Position numbers and translations under genes: made by a program. Shown here piece by piece: positions 15,404-42,750 of a stretch of 64,000 nt of DNA; within the stretch, counting starts at the first letter, position 1, and each line of letters starts with the position of its first letter. The DNA lies in contig CAYGVI010000003.1 in NCBI GenBank assembly GCA_964353335.1, positions 419,694-483,693 of the forward strand. Reading direction: 5' to 3'. The notes beneath the pieces were generated by a model. It saw only the letters and a list, made by a program, of their open reading frames with translations. It had not been told where the DNA came from and made no database searches. The DNA comes from an uncultured Methanosarcinales archaeon. Lineage in GTDB: Archaea; Nanobdellota; Nanobdellia; Woesearchaeales; ARS49.

Positions 15404-16504
15404 ATGAACCTTACCTCAAATGAAAAATTCCATTTGAAGAAATTTATCAAGGAATTGGATAGCTGTAAGGCTGCGCACACAGAGTTTGTCACGGTCTATG
15501 TCCCTTCAGGCTATGACCTTATCAAGATAATGCAGCACCTTGCACAGGAGCAGGGCACTGCGAGCAACATCAAGAGCGCGAGCACAAGGAACAATGTCAT
15601 TGACGCACTTGAAAGGATGATTCAGCATTTGCGCATTGTCGGAAAGACTCCGCCAAATGGCTTGGCGGTCTTTGCAGGAAACATCCTCGCAAGGGAGGGA
15701 AAGTCAGATGTCCGCGTGTGGAGCATTGAGCCGCCAGTTCCGCTGAAGATGCGCCTGTACAAGTGCGAGAAAAACTTTGACCTTGACATCCTGCGTGAAA
15801 TGATGGAGGCAAAGGAGGTTTACGGGCTTGTGGTTATGGACGCAAGGGATGCAATTATTGCGTTATTGAAAGGCAAAACAATTATTCCATTGACAAAAGC
15901 CCACTCGCACGTTCCAGGCAAGTTTAAGGCAGGAGGCCAGTCAGCGGTCAGGTTCCAGAGAAACCGCGAAATCGCAGTCAGGGAGCATTTTGGCAAAATT
16001 GCAGAAGTGATGAAAGGCCAGTTTTTCACAATGGAGGGGCTGAAGGGAATCATTGTCGGAGGTCCAGGGCCGACAAAATACGATTTCGTTGACAGCGGCT
16101 TAATCACCACAGACCTCAAGAAAAAGATTCTCGGCATCAAGGACCTGAGCTATACAGAGGAATTCGGGCTTGAAGAGCTTGTTGACAAGTCCCAGGACAT
16201 CCTTGCGCAAGAGGAGATTGCAGATGAGAAAAAGATTGTCACAAGGTTCCTTGAGCTTTTGGCGACAAAGCCCAACATGGTCGCGTATGGCGAGGCAGAA
16301 GTCAGGAGGATGCTTGAGATGGGTACAGTTGACACCCTGCTTCTTTCAGAGCAGCTGCCTGACGAGAAGATTGAGGAGTTTGAGCAGATCGCGAAGAAGT
16401 TCAGCACAACTATCAAGATTATCTCAACAGAAACAAGGGAAGGGTCGCAGTTGAAAGACCTTGGAAAAATGGGCGCGATACTGAGATACGAAGCAGGATA
16501 TTAA
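15404..16504 (+). CDS. prf1: peptide chain release factor aRF1
   Basis: NIKS (TASNIKSAST) and GGQ (KFKAGGQSAVRF) motifs are present. Confidence 0.9.
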   Translation: MNLTSNEKFHLKKFIKELDSCKAAHTEFVTVYVPSGYDLIKIMQHLAQEQGTASNIKSASTRNNVIDALERMIQHLRIVGKTPPNGLAVFAGNILAREGKSDVRVWSIEPPVPLKMRLYKCEKNFDLDILREMMEAKEVYGLVVMDARDAIIALLKGKTIIPLTKAHSHVPGKFKAGGQSAVRFQRNREIAVREHFGKIAEVMKGQFFTMEGLKGIIVGGPGPTKYDFVDSGLITTDLKKKILGIKDLSYTEEFGLEELVDKSQDILAQEEIADEKKIVTRFLELLATKPNMVAYGEAEVRRMLEMGTVDTLLLSEQLPDEKIEEFEQIAKKFSTTIKIISTETREGSQLKDLGKMGAILRYEAGY

Positions 16505-17124
16505 GCAATGTTCTTGATGATGTTTTCCTGTTCCACACGCGAGTTCTCAGCCCTTCCGTTAACCATCATTGTCGTGATGTTGTTAACGCGCTGTATGTTC
16601 ACGCTTCCCTGATAGTCCCTGAAGCTGACCTGCGTCTGGTTGAGCTTTATTGTGAACCTGTTCTCAAGCCTTATGCTTCCTGTCAGCTTCTCGCTGAACG
16701 AGGACATGTTGACAGTGAGCGCCTCAACGCTTCCGACTTTCATTACTATTGTCGCGCTTTCCCTGTTTGTGAACTTGATATTCAGCTGGTTGCCGCTAAG
16801 GCTTTCCATGTTTCCTTCAAGGACGATGTTCTTTGTGTCCCACCTTATCGTGCCGACAAAGTCAGCCACCATGAAGTTTCCTGAGCTGTTGATTTCATCA
16901 GTCCTTGTGGTAATGCGCGCAGATTCTGGCGCTGAGAACTTGATTGCGGTGTGGTCTGCAGAGATAATCACGTCGCTCTTGGTAATGTCAAATGTGCCTG
17001 AAACAGTGCTGTTGTCCAGAGCAACAAGGCCTGTGGGGCTCAAAAGGCTGAATCCGCCTCGGAATGCAAGGAAGCCCAGCAAAAGGATTAGCACCACTGT
17101 CAGTCCAGGAACCAATCCTCTCAT
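16501..17124 (-). CDS. membrane-anchored beta-rich protein, hypothetical
   Basis: Internal start at MRGLVPGLTVVLILLLGF (TM anchor), followed by a Ser/Thr/Asn-rich beta domain. The longer track ORF extends over the neighbouring gene. Confidence 0.45.
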   Translation of the reverse strand: MRGLVPGLTVVLILLLGFLAFRGGFSLLSPTGLVALDNSTVSGTFDITKSDVIISADHTAIKFSAPESARITTRTDEINSSGNFMVADFVGTIRWDTKNIVLEGNMESLSGNQLNIKFTNRESATIVMKVGSVEALTVNMSSFSEKLTGSIRLENRFTIKLNQTQVSFRDYQGSVNIQRVNNITTMMVNGRAENSRVEQENIIKNIA

Positions 17125-18539: not shown

Positions 18540-19712
18540 ATGGACTCCCAATACATTCTGCTTATCGCGTTTATCCTCCTGATGATTCTCTTTTCTATCC
18601 TGCAGCGCAAGAACATCCAGATGCAGGGGATTTTCCCAATATTGTACTTTGTGATGTGGCGCACCCAGAAGGGGCTGAAGTTCATGGACAGGCTCGCGCA
18701 GATGATGCCGAGGTTCTGGTCGTGGTTTTTCGGCATCGGGATTGTAGCAGGCTTTGCAGGAATGCTGATGATAAGCTATGAGCTAATCAGGACCACTGCC
18801 CTGCTTTTCATTTCACCCGGATCAGCCCCGGGAATCCAGCCAGTGCTTCCATTCCAGGCAGAGGGTGTGTTTTTTGTGCCGTTTGTCTACTGGCTGTTGA
18901 GCATTTTCCTTATCGCAGGAGTGCACGAGTTCTGCCACGGCATTGCTGCGAGGATTTACAAAATGCCTGTCAGGAACGCAGGGCTTGCATTCCTTGGGGT
19001 GATTGTCCCGATTGTTCCTGCTGCTTTTGTCGAGCCTGACGAAGCATACCTGCAGAAGCAGTCCAAATTCAGGCAGTTGAGCGTTTTTGCCGCAGGACCT
19101 TTCGCAAACCTTGTCATGGCGGGGATTATTTTCCTGATTGTCATTTTTGCCGCAAACCCATTGGCGCAGTCAATGCTTTTGCCTGACGGCGTTAGGATAA
19201 CCAGCGTAGAAACAGGAAGCCCTGCTGCTTTGGCAGGAATGCAGAAAGACGAGATTATAACATCAATTGACAGCCTTCCAACAGCTTACCTTGACAACCT
19301 CAGCACAGCACTATCCGCAAAAAAGCCAGGTGACACAATTGCATTGCAGACAAGGAACGCAACATACAATGTTGCGCTCGTAAAAAACCCGAAGAATGAG
19401 TCCAAAGTCTATCTAGGGGTGTTTTCAAGGCAGCACGCAGAGATAAAACCGCCATTCAAGGAAAAATACGGCGAGTGGTCTGTGCCGATAATCTTGTGGC
19501 TTTTCGGCCTGCTGTACTGGCTCTTCCTTTTGAGCCTCGGCATCGGCTTGTTCAACCTCCTGCCCATTGGCCCGATTGACGGCGGAAGGATGCTGCAGCT
19601 CGCAATGCAAAAGCTTTTTAAGCTACCGATTGGTTTGAAAGTCTCGAGGTTTATCAGCATCGCGTTTTTGCTGCTGGTGGTTATCAATGTTGTCAAAGGC
19701 TTCATTCATTAG
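18540..19712 (+). CDS. site-2 protease (M50 family, RseP-like) with PDZ domain
   Basis: HEFCHG (HExxH) motif, LLPIGPIDGG (LDG) motif, and a PDZ-like ITSVETGSPAALAGM region. Multiple TM helices. Confidence 0.8.
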   Translation: MDSQYILLIAFILLMILFSILQRKNIQMQGIFPILYFVMWRTQKGLKFMDRLAQMMPRFWSWFFGIGIVAGFAGMLMISYELIRTTALLFISPGSAPGIQPVLPFQAEGVFFVPFVYWLLSIFLIAGVHEFCHGIAARIYKMPVRNAGLAFLGVIVPIVPAAFVEPDEAYLQKQSKFRQLSVFAAGPFANLVMAGIIFLIVIFAANPLAQSMLLPDGVRITSVETGSPAALAGMQKDEIITSIDSLPTAYLDNLSTALSAKKPGDTIALQTRNATYNVALVKNPKNESKVYLGVFSRQHAEIKPPFKEKYGEWSVPIILWLFGLLYWLFLLSLGIGLFNLLPIGPIDGGRMLQLAMQKLFKLPIGLKVSRFISIAFLLLVVINVVKGFIH

Positions 19713-20172
19713 CATTGTGGCATGCGTTCTTGTGATAGCCCTGCTTGGCTGCCAGACATCGCCAACAGGCGGTGCAATAATCACTCAGGAGCAGACAGGC
19801 CCAAAGGATGTTGTTGTTACCAGCGAGCCAGTGCCACAGCCAGCCGCACAGCCAGCAAAGCCTGTGCCAGTTCCTCCGAGCGGAATTCCCACTAATGTTC
19901 TTCCAAGGCCAGAGCCTCAGGTAATAATCATACCTGAAAGCAAGCCTGCAGCAGACCCTTACAAGGCGTGCGTTGACAATTGCGATGCCTCGTGCACAAC
20001 TTCTGCGACATTCTCCTGCAGCAAGCCAAGCGGCACTGACTGCAAGGCAGCCTGCGGCAACATAATTGACCCGTCTGCCTGTTCCACAGCGTGCTCATTG
20101 AGGAGCGCGAGAATCTGCGAGCCAAAGTTCATAGAATTCTGCACAGCGCAATGCGTCGGCAAGTGTCATTAA
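19687..20172 (+). CDS. Cys-rich secreted lipoprotein-like protein (lipobox LLGC)
   Basis: Signal peptide ending ALLGC|QT, a Pro-rich linker, then a Cys-rich C-terminal domain. Confidence 0.45.
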   Translation: MLSKASFISIVACVLVIALLGCQTSPTGGAIITQEQTGPKDVVVTSEPVPQPAAQPAKPVPVPPSGIPTNVLPRPEPQVIIIPESKPAADPYKACVDNCDASCTTSATFSCSKPSGTDCKAACGNIIDPSACSTACSLRSARICEPKFIEFCTAQCVGKCH

Positions 20173-28647: not shown

Positions 28648-29070
28648 ATGCAAAAAAGAGGCAATATCGCGGTGTTTTTCGTAGTGCTGTTCATAGCGGT
28701 TATTGGCGTGCTTGTTATTTTCTCAGGCCCAAGCACCACAGGAATGGCATTCTGGGGTGCGCGCATGTCAAACCTTCCAGGAACCTGCGGAAGTGTCTGC
28801 CTGCATGACAGGGAATGCTCAGGCGAATGCGACAAGTGCTCGCCCTCAATGGGCAGGTGCATATCACTGAAAAAGAACTCGCCCGTCCAGCTTACAGAAA
28901 GGTATTCCTGGCGCAACATTGTGCGCTGCCAGAACAACTGCAATGACGCTTACAAGTGGTGCATGATGGCTGTGAAACGCCAGGCAGATATCACGAAATG
29001 CACTGCAAACAAGCCTTTGTGCATGAAGCAGTGTGACATCTTCCACATCCCTGGCGGAAAGACAGCATAG
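28648..29070 (+). CDS. small Cys-rich secreted protein with class III (pilin-like) signal peptide, family member
   Basis: MQKRGNIAVFFVVLFIAVIGVLVIFSG N-terminus, then about 100 aa containing 12 Cys. Confidence 0.45.
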   Translation: MQKRGNIAVFFVVLFIAVIGVLVIFSGPSTTGMAFWGARMSNLPGTCGSVCLHDRECSGECDKCSPSMGRCISLKKNSPVQLTERYSWRNIVRCQNNCNDAYKWCMMAVKRQADITKCTANKPLCMKQCDIFHIPGGKTA

Positions 29071-35927: not shown

Positions 35928-36368
35928 TTAGTTGTCGTACTGGCCGCCCTGCTGATATTCTTTTGGCAGGTTTGATGCGTCCTGATAGTTAGGGAAGCTG
36001 GTGGTGACGCCTGAGACGTCCTTTACTCCTGTGCTTTGAGTCATCAGCGCGCGTGTCCTTGCAAGAAGCGCATCCTTTCCGGTTACGCCTGTAGGTGCCG
36101 GAGGCATTCCTGTTGTCGCGACCTTGGGGCCTGTTGAAATAGTAACATTCTTCATCTGCTGCTGAAGCTCCTTAAGGGCATCTGCTGCTGACACGCCTGA
36201 ATCCTGAGCTGGAGTCGGTGTTGGCTGAGGCGCAGGTGCTGCTGCTTCGTTGACTGCTGCTGCTGTCGGTGTCCTTGCGCTCAATGGCTTTGCCTTCATC
36301 TGGTTTCCGCCACATGCTGCCAAAAGAACAAGCATCGCAATCACTGCCAAAACAATCACTTTCCTCAT
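35928..36368 (-). CDS. lipoprotein (lipobox LAAC|GG), Thr/Pro/Ala-rich
   Basis: Internal start MRKVIVLAVIAMLVLLAACGG. Confidence 0.45.
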   Translation of the reverse strand: MRKVIVLAVIAMLVLLAACGGNQMKAKPLSARTPTAAAVNEAAAPAPQPTPTPAQDSGVSAADALKELQQQMKNVTISTGPKVATTGMPPAPTGVTGKDALLARTRALMTQSTGVKDVSGVTTSFPNYQDASNLPKEYQQGGQYDN

Positions 36369-36473: not shown

Positions 36474-36815
36474 ATGGACAAAAGAGGTTCGATTGAGCTT
36501 ATAATTCTGGGCTTGGTCGCGGTGATTGCACTTGTCGGACTTGTCATGCTTTTCTCAGGCAAGATTACTGGAGAGGCAACAGGGCCAATGACACGGGACA
36601 CATTCCCAACATCAGAGCCATTCCGCATTGTACAGCCAGGCGGATATGCCTGCGGATGCGACGGAGTATGCGCATACAGCAGCAAGATTGTCAGGGCTTC
36701 GCCAACAGTCACATCAGCGATTGCAGATGGAGAATCCACCTGCAGGACCATGCTTGAATCAATCTGCGGCGGACAGCCGATACTAAGATTCAACTTCGGC
36801 TGCGGAACAAGGTAA
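36474..36815 (+). CDS. small Cys-rich secreted protein with class III (pilin-like) signal peptide, family member
   Basis: MDKRGSIELIILGLVAVIALVGLVMLFSGK N-terminus, with a GAGAGG-type ribosome-binding site upstream. Confidence 0.5.
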   Translation: MDKRGSIELIILGLVAVIALVGLVMLFSGKITGEATGPMTRDTFPTSEPFRIVQPGGYACGCDGVCAYSSKIVRASPTVTSAIADGESTCRTMLESICGGQPILRFNFGCGTR

Positions 36816-38488: not shown

Positions 38489-38761
38489 CTACTTCAGAGC
38501 CTTTGCTTCGTCCTTGAACTTCTCAACTGACTTGGCTATTCGCTTTATTGCTGCAGAAACAGTCTTCTTTGGGTCTGCGCCGTCTGTCTCAACAATAAAT
38601 GTCGGGATGTTAATCAGCGGGTGCTCAACATTGAATCCTGCTGCCTTGACGTGCTCGTCATTCCAAAGCTCTTTCTTGAGCATATTTGCCATTGTGGAGC
38701 CGTCTCCCTCTATGTTGAAAACAAGCCTGCTCTTCTTTTCCTCAAGAATCTTGACTTCCAT
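38489..38761 (-). CDS. rpoL: DNA-directed RNA polymerase subunit L (Rpb11 homologue)
   Basis: Internal start MEVKILEEKKSRLVFNIEGDGSTMANMLKKELWNDEHVKAAGFNVEHPLINIPTFIVETDG (90 aa). The upstream part of the 182-aa track ORF is non-coding promoter sequence. Confidence 0.7.
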   Translation of the reverse strand: MEVKILEEKKSRLVFNIEGDGSTMANMLKKELWNDEHVKAAGFNVEHPLINIPTFIVETDGADPKKTVSAAIKRIAKSVEKFKDEAKALK

Positions 38762-38780
38762 AATAAGGAGGGATAGTGGA

Positions 38781-38835
38781 CTGTTTAAAAAGCTTGCGTA
38801 GCAAGCCTCGTCAGCTCTGCTGACCGCTAGCTTGC
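38781..38835 (-). promoter_or_regulatory. family B two-hairpin promoter-proximal element upstream of rpoL (includes TTTTTAAA TATA-like box ~23 nt before the ATG)
   Basis: CTGTTTAAAAAGCTTGCGTAGCAAGCCTCGTCAGCTCTGCTGACCGCTAGCTTGC. The two stems are GCTTGC/GCAAGC and GTCAGC/GCTGAC. Confidence 0.55.
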
Positions 38836-38879
38836 GTGTGGAAAAGATTATATACGGATTTGGCATTCGAGTTAATACG

Positions 38880-39218
38880 ATGAACAAGAAAGCATCTGTT
38901 GAGCTGGTTATTCTCGGCATAGTCGCGGTTATTGCGCTGGCAGGGCTTATTTTGCTGTTCTCAGGAATGACAGGCAAGGCAGCAGAGCCGTTTTGCATTG
39001 ACACTGATAACGGGCTGAATTTCACTGTAAAGGGCACTGTTTATTCCCTTGACCGCCCTTATGTTGACACGTGCGTGAATGCCCACGGCTCAGAGGCTCC
39101 AAGCGGTGATGGCTTGTGGGAATTTATCTGCAAGGATAACAAGATGAAGAAGATATATTACAGGTGCCCCCGTTTCTGCGTAGACGCAATATGCAGGCCC
39201 AGCAAGTTCTTGCAGTAA
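38880..39218 (+). CDS. pilin-like signal peptide Cys-rich secreted protein, tandem family member 1
   Basis: MNKKASVELVILGIVAVIALAGLILLFSG N-terminus. C-terminal motif YRCPRFCVDAIC. Confidence 0.55.
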   Translation: MNKKASVELVILGIVAVIALAGLILLFSGMTGKAAEPFCIDTDNGLNFTVKGTVYSLDRPYVDTCVNAHGSEAPSGDGLWEFICKDNKMKKIYYRCPRFCVDAICRPSKFLQ

Positions 39219-39244
39219 TGTTTTAAGTAAAAGAGGAACGTCCC

Positions 39245-39580
39245 ATGAACAAGAAAGGCTCAATAGCATTGGTTATTCTCGGGATTATTGCGGTTATTGC
39301 GCTGGTCGGAATGATTTTGCTGTTTACCGGCAAGATAACAGGCAATGCTGCGATCCCGCCGTGCACTGATTCAGACGGAGGCTTAAACTATCCTGTTAGG
39401 GGGATTGTTACTGTTGTCGGCGACTATGGCGTTCCTGTCAAATTCATAGACCAGTGCGAACGTGCAATGTCTGGCGTTGCGAAAGTTTACGGCCTTTCAG
39501 AGAACTATTGCGCTGGCAGCAAAAGGAATTTCGCATATTACACCTGCCCGCGCGGCTGTCTCAATGGCGCCTGCATTTAG
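39245..39580 (+). CDS. pilin-like signal peptide Cys-rich secreted protein, tandem family member 2
   Basis: MNKKGSIALVILGIIAVIALVGMILLFTGKITGN N-terminus. C-terminal motif YTCPRGCLNGACI. Confidence 0.55.
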   Translation: MNKKGSIALVILGIIAVIALVGMILLFTGKITGNAAIPPCTDSDGGLNYPVRGIVTVVGDYGVPVKFIDQCERAMSGVAKVYGLSENYCAGSKRNFAYYTCPRGCLNGACI

Positions 39581-39648
39581 GAGATTTGAGGAAACGTTTT
39601 AATACGCATACATGATAACTCCTACAAATAAGTAAAAGAGGTATTTTC

Positions 39649-40011
39649 ATGAACAAGAAAGGCTCAGTTGCATTGATTATTCTTGGAATTGTGGCAGTTA
39701 TTGCTCTTGTCGGGCTCATATTGGTTTTCACAGGCAAAGGGTCTGTAACAGGAAATGCGCTGGCAACAAGCTGTACTGATTCAGACAACGGTAAAAACTA
39801 CAAGTCAAGGGGCTCAGTGGGTCTGGGAATATCTTCATTTGAGGATACTTGCCTGCGCTTTCCCAGTGTTTCATATGACGGGCCTGGAAATTTTGTTAAA
39901 GAAGGGCTTTACCTTGCAGAAGGATATTGCGAGAATGGCAATATTCTGCGATTTGATGTTTACACCTGCCCGCGCGGCTGTGTTAACGGCGCCTGCATTC
40001 AGGATTTTTAA
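39649..40011 (+). CDS. pilin-like signal peptide Cys-rich secreted protein, tandem family member 3
   Basis: MNKKGSVALIILGIVAVIALVGLILVFTGK N-terminus. C-terminal motif YTCPRGCVNGACIQDF. Confidence 0.55.
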   Translation: MNKKGSVALIILGIVAVIALVGLILVFTGKGSVTGNALATSCTDSDNGKNYKSRGSVGLGISSFEDTCLRFPSVSYDGPGNFVKEGLYLAEGYCENGNILRFDVYTCPRGCVNGACIQDF

Positions 40012-40073
40012 GGAAACGTTTTAATACTTATACACGATAACTTCAAAAAATCAGTCAAAAAGAGGTGCATTTT

Positions 40074-40406
40074 ATGAACAAAAGAGCTTCAGTGGAATTG
40101 GTTATTCTCGGGCTTGTTGCGGTCATCGCGCTGGTCGGAATGATTTTGCTGTTTACAGGCAAGATAACAGGAAATAGCGTGGGAAACTACGTTTGCACAG
40201 ACACAGAGCGGGACATGGACTTTTACACAAGGGGAGTCACGACTTATGCAAGCGCCCCCTTTACAGACACCTGTGCAGATAACAACAATGTCGCGATTGG
40301 AGGTGCCGGACCCAAGCTTATTGAGTATTACTGCAGGGACGGAGCCATGTATACCAACACCCAAAGGTGCATAAATGGCTGTGTGAACGGCGCGTGCATT
40401 ATTTAA
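40074..40406 (+). CDS. pilin-like signal peptide Cys-rich secreted protein, tandem family member 4
   Basis: MNKRASVELVILGLVAVIALVGMILLFTGKITGN N-terminus. C-terminal motif RCINGCVNGACII. I preferred the ATG at 40074 over the track's GTG at 40065 by paralogue alignment. Confidence 0.55.
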   Translation: MNKRASVELVILGLVAVIALVGMILLFTGKITGNSVGNYVCTDTERDMDFYTRGVTTYASAPFTDTCADNNNVAIGGAGPKLIEYYCRDGAMYTNTQRCINGCVNGACII

Positions 40407-40408
40407 GT

Positions 40409-41170
40409 TTATTTTAACATTCCGGCAATGGCTGCAATTGCCATTGCCGCAGTTTCTATTCTTAGAATATTCCTGCCAAGAGATGCGGGAATGCAGCCTG
40501 CCTTCTTCAGGGCTGCTTTTTCCTCGTCGGTAAAGCCCCCTTCTGGCCCGATAAAGGCAATAGCGCTCTTTGGCTTTTCCTGAAGGGCTTCAAGTATTGG
40601 CTTGCCTTCCTGGTCAAGCAGAAGCTTTAGCTTTGCGTCCTGCTTCAAAGCCTCTTCTATCGTCGATAAGGGTTTAAGTTCAGGTATCCAGGCCTGCTTG
40701 CTTTGCTTGCAGGCTTCTATCAGGATTCTTTGCCAGCGCTCCTGCTTTGCCTCGCGCGGAAGCACTACAGAATGCTCTGTTTTAAGGGGAATTATCGTCG
40801 ATACTCCTAATTCTGTGAGCTTTTGGAGCATCCAGTCAGCGCGGTCTCCTTTTGGCACTGCTACTGCTATTGCAAGGGAAAACTCGCTTTGGGCAACTTC
40901 ATGGCTTTCCAGAAGCCTTGCCTTACCTTCTTCAATAAGCTCTGCTATGTTTACTGTGCCCTTTCCGTTGAACAAGCTCACTTTATCCTTTGTTTCTAGC
41001 CTTTGAGCCTTCAAGTGCCTAACTTCTTCTGGGTCAAGCACTATTTCGCCCGTCTGGGGCAGTTCTGGTGCGTAAAACCAAGGATTGTCGTTTGGGTTCA
41101 TCATATACTCATTTGCCTCAAAATGCTTGCATTTTGATGACTTGCCGAACGCTGTTCGGCATCGCCTCAC
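40409..41170 (-). CDS. rsmE: 16S rRNA methyltransferase RsmE-like
   Basis: GPEGGFTDEE...LGRNILRIETAAMA C-terminal motif. The true start may be the internal MMNPNDNPW. Confidence 0.65.
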   Translation of the reverse strand: MRRCRTAFGKSSKCKHFEANEYMMNPNDNPWFYAPELPQTGEIVLDPEEVRHLKAQRLETKDKVSLFNGKGTVNIAELIEEGKARLLESHEVAQSEFSLAIAVAVPKGDRADWMLQKLTELGVSTIIPLKTEHSVVLPREAKQERWQRILIEACKQSKQAWIPELKPLSTIEEALKQDAKLKLLLDQEGKPILEALQEKPKSAIAFIGPEGGFTDEEKAALKKAGCIPASLGRNILRIETAAMAIAAIAGMLK

Positions 41171-41517
41171 TTTTGATGAATAATACCCCTATATTTAACC
41201 CTTTTGCTCCCTCAAATTGCTCACTTTTGGTCAAAAGCACTAGTTTTAGATAGTGCCTAACCTATCCTAAACCCTTTCTGAACTCTCACTTTTCACTCAC
41301 AAAGTCCCTCTTTCTGGCTCCTTCTTTACCCTTCAGGACGCCTCACTTTGACGCATATAGGCATTATGTGTTTTATTGGTTCTTAGGCACCAGCATTAGG
41401 CACTAGTAAGCCCTCCTGAAGGCCCCTTTTGCCCTGGGCCAAGATTGGCAACGGTTAGACCTTGCCTTCCCCCGTCTTGGCTCTCTTATGACATTCTTGT
41501 CGCACTATATTATATGG

Positions 41518-41960
41518 GCGCCACTGCCTCATTCCCAGTCATTCCCAGTCCCATTCTCATTCCCAGATAATCCCTGCCGGGAATAACCCTGCTTCGTTCC
41601 CAGTCCCAAACTTTTCGCAGCAGTTCCACAGATCAGTATTGCCCCATTGAGCGTTAGCGAAATGGGGCCAGCCAGCTTGCTGGCGCTGCCTCATTCCCAA
41701 CACCACATTCTCATTCCCAAACGTTCCCAGATAGTCCCACTCATTCCCAGCCTGTCGTCACGGAAAGTTTCCGATAGTCCCACTCTCATTCCCACTCATT
41801 CCCAGGATATTCCCGCCTCCGTCTCAACTCATTCCCAGCTCATTCCCAGATAGTCCCAAGTGGGAATGTGGGAATGACGTTTTACCGACGATAAAACGTT
41901 CCCAAAAGGCAGCTGATAGTCCCAAAACAGTCCTGGGAACGTCATGGGAAGGTCCTGGGA
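41518..41960. repeat. iteron/ORB-like repeat array: >=13 copies of (C)TCATTCCCA(G), 3 of ACGTTCCCAG and 4 of GATAGTCCCA in direct orientation, followed by inverted copies (TGGGAATGTGGGAATGACG; CTGGGAACGTCATGGGAAGGTCCTGGGACC)
   Basis: Seen directly in the sequence. There is also an 8-bp hairpin, GCCCCATT-12nt-AATGGGGC, at 41641-41668. The whole array sits in a ~770-bp non-coding region upstream of wHTH paralogue A. Confidence 0.7.
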
Positions 41961-42750
41961 CCGTCCCAAAAACAGCAGAAAAGAGGACAAAACAGGGTAT
42001 TGGAAAACTTTTTATACCTGCCCTTGTTTTCACTTTGCCATGGGGTGGCTTTTCGGAAAAGAGGTTGACGACAAGGTTGCGCAGCTTGACCGCGCTTTAA
42101 AGGACAGCTTTGCGCATGTCAAGCAGGACACGAACGCGATATACCAATGGCTCGCGTACTTCCAGCAGCAGACAGCCCGCCAAAACCAGCTCATAGAGGA
42201 GCAGCAGCACGACCTCGACGACTACGAGCAGGAAATAGTCAGGCAGAAACAGCTTATCGAGAGGATGCAAACGGAATTAAGGGATGTTCCAAAGGATTCT
42301 GAGACAATAAAGCGTATTATTGACGCGTATTACGATTTCGACACCATGGTAGAGCGTATGAGACAAATAGAGGATAAATTGCGCCATTTGGAGCACCAAA
42401 AGGCAGCTCCAGCAGTTCAGCAGATAAGGCACGAGGTCGAGGCATTGCCTCACATTGCCCCTCCACCGTCGAGAACACAGGCTTTGAGGGACAAGATTGT
42501 CCAGAGGATAACCAGGAATTCGAAGGAATACCTGAAGGGGCTTATCATGAGCATGATCACGAAATATGGCAAGATATCGGCGCTGCAGCTCAGGGAAATG
42601 CTCGTCGAGGAACAGGGCCTTGCCAGCAAGAGCAGCTTCTACAGGCTCTTAGAGGAGCTTGAGGATGAGTCTGCAATAGGAGTTATTCACGAAGGAAAGG
42701 AAAAGCTGCTTATGGTCGGAGGGCACCTGAAAAAGGCTGTTGGAAGATAG
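41944..42750 (+). CDS. coiled-coil protein with C-terminal winged-helix DNA-binding domain (putative regulator), paralogue A
   Basis: Gln/Glu-rich heptads, then ISALQLREMLVEEQGLASKSSFYRLLEELEDESAIGV (wHTH). The start may be the internal MGWLFGKEV. Confidence 0.45.
   Translation: MGRSWDRPKNSRKEDKTGYWKTFYTCPCFHFAMGWLFGKEVDDKVAQLDRALKDSFAHVKQDTNAIYQWLAYFQQQTARQNQLIEEQQHDLDDYEQEIVRQKQLIERMQTELRDVPKDSETIKRIIDAYYDFDTMVERMRQIEDKLRHLEHQKAAPAVQQIRHEVEALPHIAPPPSRTQALRDKIVQRITRNSKEYLKGLIMSMITKYGKISALQLREMLVEEQGLASKSSFYRLLEELEDESAIGVIHEGKEKLLMVGGHLKKAVGR

Follow-up and report, generated by a model that had tools for sequence, protein, structure and literature searches.

Six small genes in a 64-kb stretch of archaeal DNA (hereafter the window, meaning the whole stretch that was analysed) encode Cys-rich exported proteins of 110–140 amino acids (aa) that are built on one N-terminal module. 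This module, of approximately 33 aa, consists of M-x-K-K/R-G/A-S/N, some 22 hydrophobic residues and then F-S/T-G-K-x-T-G. Its pattern of substitution leads us to consider, with reasonable confidence, that the N-terminal helix is retained in the mature protein, be it through pilin-like processing or as an uncleaved anchor. The reading that we favour, to which we give a probability of about 0.4, is that the module acts as a class III (type IV pilin-like) signal, cut after K/R-G/A by a PibD-type peptidase; we rate pilin-like processing slightly ahead of a plain anchor. Judged by their sequences, the heads of the four tandem genes are each one copy of a very common, unnamed archaeal extracellular repeat module and not a pilin domain.

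A preliminary description of this DNA had listed six open reading frames (ORFs) with a common N-terminus, and all six were confirmed where it had placed them, five with near-identical N-termini and one looser. Four of the genes lie in tandem between rpoL and rsmE. The first, g1 (38880..39218, + strand, 112 aa), begins with MNKKA|SVELVILGIVAVIALAGLILLFSGMTGKAA and joins the N-terminal module to one 6-Cys module. This architecture recurs in g2 (39245..39580, +, 111 aa), which starts 26 nt past g1, and in g3 (39649..40011, +, 120 aa) and g4 (40074..40406, +, 110 aa). The two dispersed members are named here by their first coordinate. Member 36474 (36474..36815, +, 113 aa), next to uppS, bears the same N-terminal module on a different 6-Cys alpha/beta head, and member 28648 (28648..29070, +, 140 aa) combines a divergent N-terminal module, MQKRG|NIAVFFVVLFIAVIGVLVIFSGPSTTG, with a 12-Cys head. 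A six-frame scan for Met, a short basic stretch, [KR][GA] and approximately 22 hydrophobic residues recovered the six family ORFs together with two unrelated ORFs. Ratios of non-synonymous to synonymous divergence (dN/dS) were computed gene by gene between the window and a sister species, L007. Since orthologues in related metagenome-assembled genomes (MAGs) show dN/dS values of 0.07–0.31, the six ORFs are real coding genes under purifying selection. The possibility that they are non-genes or antisense artefacts was ruled out by the syntenic, conserved orthologues with dN/dS below 1.

Over 29 residues the N-termini of the five closer members are 66–83% identical. They follow the pattern M-(N/D)-K-(K/R)-(G/A)-S-(I/V)-(A/E)-L-(V/I)-I-L-G-x-(V/I)-A-V-I-A-L-x-G-x-(I/V)-x-L-F-(S/T)-G-(K)-x-T-G, in which K3, I18, A19, G22, F27, G29, T31/32 and G32/33 are invariant. 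The basic tip amounts to 4–5 residues (M-N/D-K-K/R) and is followed by G/A. The N-terminus of 28648 is 38–44% identical to the others and retains the KRG, the hydrophobic run and the FSG..TTG hinge; across the three unrelated heads G13, A16–L20, G22, F27, G29, T32 and G33 are invariant. Invariant small residues of the helix (G13, A16, A19 and G22) form a G-xx-A-xx-A-xx-G stripe. A profile made from the N-terminal module alone, which is short and hydrophobic, yielded 134 word candidates among 5.8 billion proteins and none at E ≤ 10. The stalk serves longer proteins as well, as shown by a 284-aa metagenomic protein (L011, 50-904) which has the conserved helix (LVAVIALVGLIL) without K/R-G/A and continues with one 6-Cys module, a spacer rich in Pro, Thr, Val and Gln, and a further tail that contains Cys.

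In order to read this conservation, the synonymous sites are informative. Between paralogues, the first 29 codons show dS of 0.9 to >2 and dN of 0.09–0.22, and the mature parts show dN of 0.6–0.87. Gene conversion as the cause of the N-terminal identity was rejected, synonymous sites being saturated with the sole exception of g2 and g4 (dS 0.29). The module is therefore kept by purifying selection rather than by recent gene conversion. Because dN is constrained at saturated dS, unlike in a throw-away leader, the module is probably retained in the mature protein.

In the reading that we favour, the Sec/signal recognition particle pathway would insert the N-terminal module N-in/C-out, a PibD-type peptidase would clip it after K/R-G/A, and the helix would stay in the mature protein. 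A flexible tether of 12–30 residues would then hold one small disulfide-rich head outside the cell. The retained helices may pack together, so that the proteins become subunits or minor subunits of a pilus-like fibre with the Cys-rich heads as its exposed contact surface; alternatively, they may remain as membrane-held stubs with exposed Cys-rich heads, like the class III sugar-binding proteins of Sulfolobus. In either form the tandem array would supply several alternative heads on one stalk.

Several observations are consistent with class III processing. As the preliminary description had noted, a short basic region, K/R-G/A and a hydrophobic helix are present in all six proteins, and the K/R-G/A stands directly before the H-domain of approximately 22 residues in all six genes and in nearly all fetched orthologues. 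The residues at −2/−1|+1 are KA|S, KG|S, KG|S, RA|S, RG|S and RG|N, and a 5-residue leader suffices for PibD or FlaK (PMC4307647). In the 36474 subfamily Glu occupies +3 with at least 90% conservation, and g1 and g4 have it as well. One N-terminal module, under purifying selection, is common to three unrelated heads. A conserved H-domain with diverse C-terminal parts, encoded apart from the machinery, has its direct precedent in PilA1–PilA6 of Haloferax volcanii (PMC4371748) and recurs in the Sulfolobales class III binding proteins. The AlphaFold2 arrangement of a confidently predicted helix (residues 4–27), tether and globular head resembles the layout of class III sugar-binding proteins (bioRxiv 10.64898/2026.04.22.720090). 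In addition, the ordinary Sec leaders encoded in the window look different, being of the MKKLALFLAILFTIPAVFA|VD and lipobox types. Type IV filament loci are commonly encoded by DPANN archaea (bioRxiv 10.64898/2026.04.22.720090).

A second set of observations weighs against this reading, and the class III call of the preliminary description is weakened by it. We tested the first 20 residues of each protein with the FlaFind 1.2 motif, [KRDE][GA][ALIFQMVED][ILMVTAS] (PMC4307647), as a regular expression, and none of the six matched, the +1 residue being Ser or Asn. The −2 Lys of g1 is Asn in the population variant L002 and in the sister species L007, and a charged residue at −2 is reported to be critical for archaeal prepilin peptidases (PMC4371748). 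Two distant members, L010a (MSEAKSVAAL...) and L011 (MSKEHSHALILL...), keep the helix without K/R-G/A. No pilin, archaellin or class III N-terminal model matched any of the six (Pfam at E ≤ 1, NCBIfam at E ≤ 10), these models being short enough that HMMER filters may conceal weak matches. The helix is about 24 residues long, a Gly/Pro-rich tether separates it from the head, and there is no helix–head packing as in solved pilins; the pilin-type globular fold, a beta-sheet or immunoglobulin (Ig)-like domain packed on the C-terminal half of the helix, was not seen. Finally, the head module is delivered mostly by Sec in other proteins.

The machinery itself was sought in the 64-kb window and a few kb at each end. 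The search comprised Pfam on 20 larger unassigned ORFs, regular expressions for Walker-A and GxGDxK applied to the window and to every locus, and Pfam annotations already computed for contigs that overlap the window and extend both of its ends. These ~70–75 kb contain no gene for a peptidase A24, a T2SSE ATPase or a TadC-like protein. The preliminary description had proposed looking elsewhere in the genome for a prepilin peptidase and a pilus assembly ATPase. This absence counts only weakly against class III processing, because pilin genes often stand alone. We conclude that archaeal class III proteins with conserved H-domains are the nearest functional parallel to the family, yet it is not to be filed as a member of that class, since the published motif does not match, the curated models are silent and the search for machinery extended to ~70–75 kb.

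Other proteins encoded in the window bear on the same theme. An ORF at 16501-17124 (−) encodes 207 aa beginning MRGLVPGLTVVLILLLGFLAFRGGFSLLSPTG..., matches FlaFind 1.2 (RGLV) and has no Pfam hit; it looks beta-rich by eye, with several N-x-S/T sequons and a similar ‘xTG’ hinge past the helix. It is a better canonical pilin-like candidate than the six-gene family. The archaeal lipobox, [L][AS][GA]|C, does not occur in the family, no member having a Cys before residue 39. Lipobox-like N-termini are found at 35928-36368 (−), MRKVIVLAVIAMLVLLAAC|GG, and at 19687-20172 (+), ...VLVIALLGC|QTS; neither protein has a Pfam hit, and the two suggest lipoprotein-type anchoring in the host archaeon.

The alternative that survives best, and which we regard as a real possibility though not a probable one, is an uncleaved signal-anchor. 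The N-terminal module would then be a type II (N-in/C-out) helix that is never clipped or polymerised, with the proteins present as monomers or small oligomers in the membrane. The Cys-rich module would be held some 12 residues out from the lipid, beneath the surface layer (S-layer) or inside it, and may dock large module-rich envelope proteins. Conservation of the helix would reflect specific helix–helix contact with a shared membrane partner or between the proteins themselves; the G-xx-A-xx-A-xx-G stripe is suited to the packing of helices in a membrane. All the points set against class III processing (the +1 residue in FlaFind, the K4N change in g1, the members without K/R-G/A, the lack of a pilin model and of machinery nearby) apply in its favour, and large relatives that combine the 6-Cys module with a similarly long hydrophobic segment at the N-terminus carry the S-layer domain PF05124 and, just under its cut-off, TIGR01564. 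On the other hand, transmembrane anchors are seldom so conserved over unrelated ectodomains, and neither the invariant small residue after the basic pair nor the conserved Glu at +3 has an obvious role in an anchor. The fixed length of the leader across the family (M, three residues and G/A) is more typical of a processing site.

To gain insight into the heads, we considered their Cys patterns and predicted structures. Each of g1–g4 contains exactly six Cys residues, as does 36474, and 28648 has 12; the mature domains of the latter two are unrelated. The mature parts of g1–g4 share the pattern C.D(S/T)D.G.N(Y/F)...G...D.C...L.E.(Y/I)C...C..(G/F)C.(N/D)(G/A)(A/I)C. When six Cys with the D.D.G, E.(Y)C and GC.(N/D)G.C positions within ~65–80 residues are taken as the signature, g1–g4 carry it and 36474 and 28648 do not, which on sequence grounds identifies g1–g4 as members of an unnamed 6-Cys module family. 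The AlphaFold2 model of g2 (predicted local distance difference test score, pLDDT, 89) has a helix at 4–27, a linker at 28–39 and an all-beta domain at 40–111. That of 36474 (mean pLDDT 69) has a helix at 3–27, a disordered linker at 28–57 and a small domain at 58–112, for which fold comparison gave no significant match. These models portray the heads as small extracellular disulfide-rich modules in a helix–tether–head architecture. A fold search of the PDB with the head of the tandem genes gave no match, no pilin or archaellin appearing among the fold matches, and PDB sequences searched by hidden Markov model with the mature-domain profile gave no hit (best E-value 1). The mature domain of the tandem genes is a generic extracellular repeat module, without a solved relative, and does not resemble a pilin.

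The extent of this module became apparent from a profile built on the mature parts of g1–g4 and their orthologues, which was searched against 1.84 billion cluster representatives. It matched 5,867 representatives at E ≤ 1e-3, 1,869 at ≤ 1e-10 and 194 at ≤ 1e-30. The best matches are proteins of 345–3,760 aa with 3–24 copies of the module and E-values down to 1e-91. The consensus reads C-T-D-S-D-G-G-x-N-Y-Y-x-K-G ... D-x-C ... L-x-E-Y-Y-C ... Y-x-C-P-N-G-C-x-N-G-A-C. In an alignment of 87 module sequences C40, C71, E86, C89, C101, C105 and C110 are invariant, and the loop between Cys2 and Cys3 varies in length and sequence across the whole superfamily. Neither Pfam nor NCBIfam holds a model for the 6-Cys module, scans of the six family proteins against both gave sub-threshold noise alone, and no paper on the CTDSDGG motif emerged from a search of the literature. 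Most other proteins that bear the module deliver it by Sec-type leaders. Its partner domains in the large proteins include subtilase, FG-GAP, CARDB and Ig-like domains. Four large module proteins with long N-terminal hydrophobic segments carry the archaeal S-layer domain PF05124 (S_layer_C), and two of these four score just under the TIGR01564 (S_layer_MJ) cut-off. The only organism name recovered for a large module protein was Candidatus Altiarchaeota.

A further motif, (F/W)..(K/R)(I/L)TG(K/E/R)(A/V), was observed in 28 of 150 large module proteins, immediately past their hydrophobic N-terminal region, against a background of ~0.03 per 55-residue stretch (~5 proteins expected). Carriers of this ITGKA-type motif include P0027, P0032, P0049, P0054, P0061, P0076, P0078, P0090, P0101, P0113, P0123, P0150 and P0157, and a longer form, SA-GFFS.FW.KITGKAV, is frequent. 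The motif, of which the family's F-(S/T)-G-K-x-T-G hinge (residues 27–35) looks like a version, may serve in sorting, as a hinge or as a modification site. ITGKAV itself is not a cleavage site, because in the large proteins it lies past a VSA-type site.

We next consider the history of the array, which the preliminary description had attributed to recent cassette duplication. Duplication is supported by the copy number at the syntenic rpoL–rsmE site, which is zero in L023 (GCA_038884635.1), one (g4 type) in L025 and L026 (GCA_037445145.1), two (g3 and g4 types) in L010, three (g1, g3 and g4) in L007 and four in the window. Since the more distant L025 and L026 hold only a g4-type gene at the site, g4 is the probable founder. 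In a blastn comparison with L007, positions 38700-39226 and 39593-40393 align and the intervening stretch is absent; this 366-nt cassette (39227..39592, +), comprising g2 and its flanks, marks the gain or loss of one unit. The claim of recency holds less well. Mature domains differ between paralogues at saturated dS (at least 1.5) compared with ~0.3 for the split between the window and L007, so the duplications are old relative to that split, and three of the four genes have orthologues in the sister species. ‘Recent’ fits only the gain or loss of g2 and two homogenised patches. One covers the first ~118 nt of g2 and g4 (84–87% identical, dS 0.29). The other covers the 3′ ends and spacers of g2 and g3, where 39538-39640 and 39960-40062 are 84% identical over 103 nt, bearing out the duplicated spacer that had been described earlier. 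Unequal recombination at a single fixed site produced this lineage-specific expansion.

The g4-type orthologues were also seen to end in an extra tail, ...(S/A)GLAFNPD(V/I), in L007 (10427-10792), L025 (12039-12428), L010 (1912-2283), P0005 and P0007. The g4 of the window is without the GLAFNPD tail: it terminates directly behind GACII, with 2 nt left to the end of the opposite-strand rsmE; either a C-terminal signal was lost or a local deletion occurred.

Whether the array is a rapidly diversifying cassette for host interaction is a matter compatible with any topology, and we consider it unlikely. In its support, the copy number varies from 0 to 4 among relatives, the Cys2–Cys3 loop is variable in length and sequence, and dN of g3, g4 and 36474 is 0.09–0.11 compared with 0.003–0.06 in neighbouring genes, which is two to four times faster. 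The individual comparisons with L007 are nevertheless those of constrained genes: g1 is 95.5% identical to its orthologue with dN/dS 0.07, g3 is 83% identical (P0004, dN/dS 0.31), g4 is 85.5% identical (dN/dS 0.26) and 36474 has dN/dS 0.27. For seven neighbouring genes dN/dS is 0.02–0.17, and neighbouring housekeeping proteins are 93–99% identical. No family gene approaches a dN/dS of 1, all orthologue pairs lying between 0.07 and 0.31, and g1 is constrained like a housekeeping gene. The four-gene array occurs at 98.8–100% DNA identity in contigs of at least six metagenomes, with five of seven within-gene single-nucleotide polymorphisms (SNPs) synonymous. Because of this identity and the mostly synonymous SNPs, the array is not hypervariable; it is stable within the population, without gene-wide positive selection. 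The variable loop, moreover, belongs to the whole module superfamily and not to the array. The word ‘diversifying’ in the preliminary description was accordingly an overstatement, although the evidence supports its family of small, exported Cys-rich proteins encoded in tandem by a DPANN archaeon with a small genome.

The least likely of the alternatives is an ordinary Sec leader, an outcome that the preliminary description had named as one that would undo the class III reading. Signal peptidase I would cut after T-G-x-A/S (Gly at −3, Ala/Ser at −1) to release soluble Cys-rich mini-proteins of ~75 aa as secreted effectors, toxins or signalling peptides. In all six proteins of the window the −3 and −1 positions of T-G-x-(A/S) are indeed occupied by small residues, MxKRG-type n-regions occur on clear Sec leaders of module proteins (e.g. 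MQKRGLLILILLIIPVLLASFAFA|AS), and the module is Sec-secreted in most proteins that bear it; but the hydrophobic stretch of 22 residues is about twice a typical h-region (roughly 7–15) with the cut site 8–10 residues past it, orthologues have Tyr, Phe or Thr at −1 (TGNY|M, TGQF|M and TGNT|V), the leader amino acids are under strong purifying selection that is not expected of a discarded peptide, and in the large proteins ITGKAV lies downstream of a normal VSA-type cleavage site. Selection on the leader and the −1 residues of the orthologues make an ordinary Sec leader look improbable.

Comparison with known systems places the family near, and not within, several of them. The PilA1–PilA6 proteins of Haloferax volcanii have a near-identical H-domain and divergent C-terminal parts, and their genes are not beside pilB/pilC (PMC4371748). 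Like these pilins (arCOG02416), the family consists of several small paralogues with a near-identical H-domain after a charged residue and G/A and with divergent C-terminal parts, and is encoded away from pilB/pilC. In contrast to PilA, which has the motif (R/D)A|VS and matches Pfam Pilin_N, the six-gene family has Ser or Asn at +1 and no curated match; its heads are disulfide-rich mini-domains on a flexible tether. The Sulfolobales class III sugar-binding proteins (bindosome, GlcS) likewise combine a class III-type N-terminus, a helix, a linker and a globular extracellular domain, and their genes too lie apart from the filament machinery (bioRxiv 10.64898/2026.04.22.720090). Theirs are large solute-binding domains beside ATP-binding cassette transporters, whereas here the heads are Cys-rich, of 55–100 aa, and no transporter is nearby.

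Modular type IV pilins such as PilB of Streptococcus sanguinis also graft a functional module on a pilin stalk (PMC8179133), but PilB is bacterial and keeps the full pilin fold, and the six-gene family has no pilin globular fold. The g1–g4 heads are the same 6-Cys module that is found in the large multi-repeat S-layer-like or adhesin-like proteins of DPANN archaea and Altiarchaeota, some of which carry the F..K-I-T-G-K-A hinge motif. Those proteins are of 400–3,700 aa, with 3–24 copies, mostly Sec-like leaders and extra domains (S_layer_C, subtilase, FG-GAP, CARDB), whereas the tandem genes of the window encode a single module in ~110 aa with a long conserved N-terminal helix. FlaF and FlaG resemble the family in being small membrane-held proteins with an N-terminal hydrophobic helix and a beta-rich extracellular domain, the FlaF/FlaG type being one that contacts the S-layer (PMC4425475). 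They differ in that neither the sequences nor the folds are similar, the family has no archaellum genes in its neighbourhood, and its heads are rich in Cys.

The array is flanked by rpoE′, spt4, S24e, S27ae, L12, L10, L1, uppS, rpoL and rsmE, and the window, with a G+C content of 47%, is archaeal. When GTDB species genomes were scanned with the family alignment, the only locus obtained was that of L007 (‘MAG: Candidatus Nanoarchaeia archaeon isolate OBJ1_062018_130_26’), so that the genome of the window is apparently not among the species representatives. The 36474 protein has 16 homologues of 113–115 aa, two of which bear the source name ‘Candidatus Woesearchaeota archaeon’. From L007 and these source names, the host is a DPANN archaeon of Woesearchaeota/Nanoarchaeia type. 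Genes of the 36474 and 28648 types are single-copy and syntenic in all relatives compared, and in L023 and L025 the syntenic 28648 orthologues adjoin the gene for the CCA-adding enzyme on its downstream side.

The preliminary description had placed an AAGAGGT ribosome-binding site before each gene. This Shine–Dalgarno sequence is indeed upstream of g2, g3, g4 and 36474, and it is absent before g1 (38880) and 28648. Before g3, the element GGAAACGTTTTAATAC (39590..39605, +) is BRE/TATA-like (BRE, TFB recognition element), lies inside the 103-nt duplicated block and is followed by the Shine–Dalgarno sequence AAAAGAGGT (39634-39642, +). A second copy of GGAAACGTTTTAATAC precedes g4 (40012..40027, +), with a Shine–Dalgarno sequence downstream at 40057-40067, and a variant of this promoter-like element, GGAAAAGATTATATAC, precedes g1 (38840..38855, +). 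By the archaeal TATA consensus, GGAAACGTTTTAATAC looks like a candidate archaeal BRE/TATA promoter. In g3 and g4 the promoter-like element stands ~45–60 nt ahead of the ATG, in addition to the Shine–Dalgarno sequence. Since g1 has a TATA-like TTATATA at 38848-38854, 25 nt ahead of its ATG, and no Shine–Dalgarno sequence, its transcript is probably leaderless. The Shine–Dalgarno sequence of g2, AAAGAGGA (39230-39237, +), falls within the g1–g2 spacer; as only 26 nt separates the two genes, g2 is probably co-transcribed with g1.

Elsewhere in the window, a cluster of short repeats was observed at 41500-41970 (+), composed of (C)TCATTCCCAG / GTCCCA and some inverted GGGAAT. It occupies a non-coding gap of ~840 nt between rsmE (40409-41104, −) and a gene for a 268-aa protein at 41944-42750. 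The sequence ATTCCCAG occurs nine times in the window, seven of them in the gap cluster, against 2.4 expected by chance, and clusters of this motif are present at the same syntenic gap in L007, L010, L015, L017, L023, L025 and L026. The cluster could be a binding-site array for the adjacent protein, which by eye appears to be coiled-coil plus winged-helix, or a replication origin. Rfam gave nothing in the gap and, over the 64 kb on both strands, no family at gathering score, not even tRNA.

What the proteins may do can be approached through their heads. Whichever of the two membrane topologies applies, the cell would display several alternative Cys-rich heads on one stalk near the membrane. 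Giant S-layer-like or adhesin-like proteins are built from the same unit as the tandem heads, so the most parsimonious guess, by analogy, is that these heads make module–module or module–glycan contacts, whether inside the envelope or with a host cell. DPANN archaea live in attachment to other cells, and most of their surface proteins lack annotation. A bolder and doubtful idea is that the family represents an undescribed, FlaFind-negative class of pilin-like stalks with interchangeable disulfide-rich mini-domains, one of them a single unit of the S-layer/adhesin 6-Cys module, that is, a modular ‘display pilus’ or pseudopilus in DPANN archaea of Woesearchaeota type. If this were true, tandem duplication at a single locus would enlarge the repertoire of heads, these would mediate contact with a host cell or with the cell's own envelope, and the several thousand clusters of the 6-Cys module would make up a new fold family without a curated model or solved structure.

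If the proteins are plain membrane anchors, they form an ordinary lineage-specific family of small envelope proteins. The family offers a tractable system in which to examine class III processing among DPANN archaea, and a minimal representative of a large ‘dark’ surface module; it does not amount to evidence of a new mechanism. If class III processing in these organisms tolerates Ser at +1, rule-based pilin finders miss a class of substrates. If confirmed, the family would be useful as a compact and tractable one, with one conserved stalk and three kinds of small Cys-rich head, on proteins small enough for expression; the single-copy heads of ~75 residues would offer the easiest entry to the fold of the module and its binding partner. 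The series from 0 to 4 copies at one syntenic site would likewise provide a clean example of the growth of a surface repertoire.

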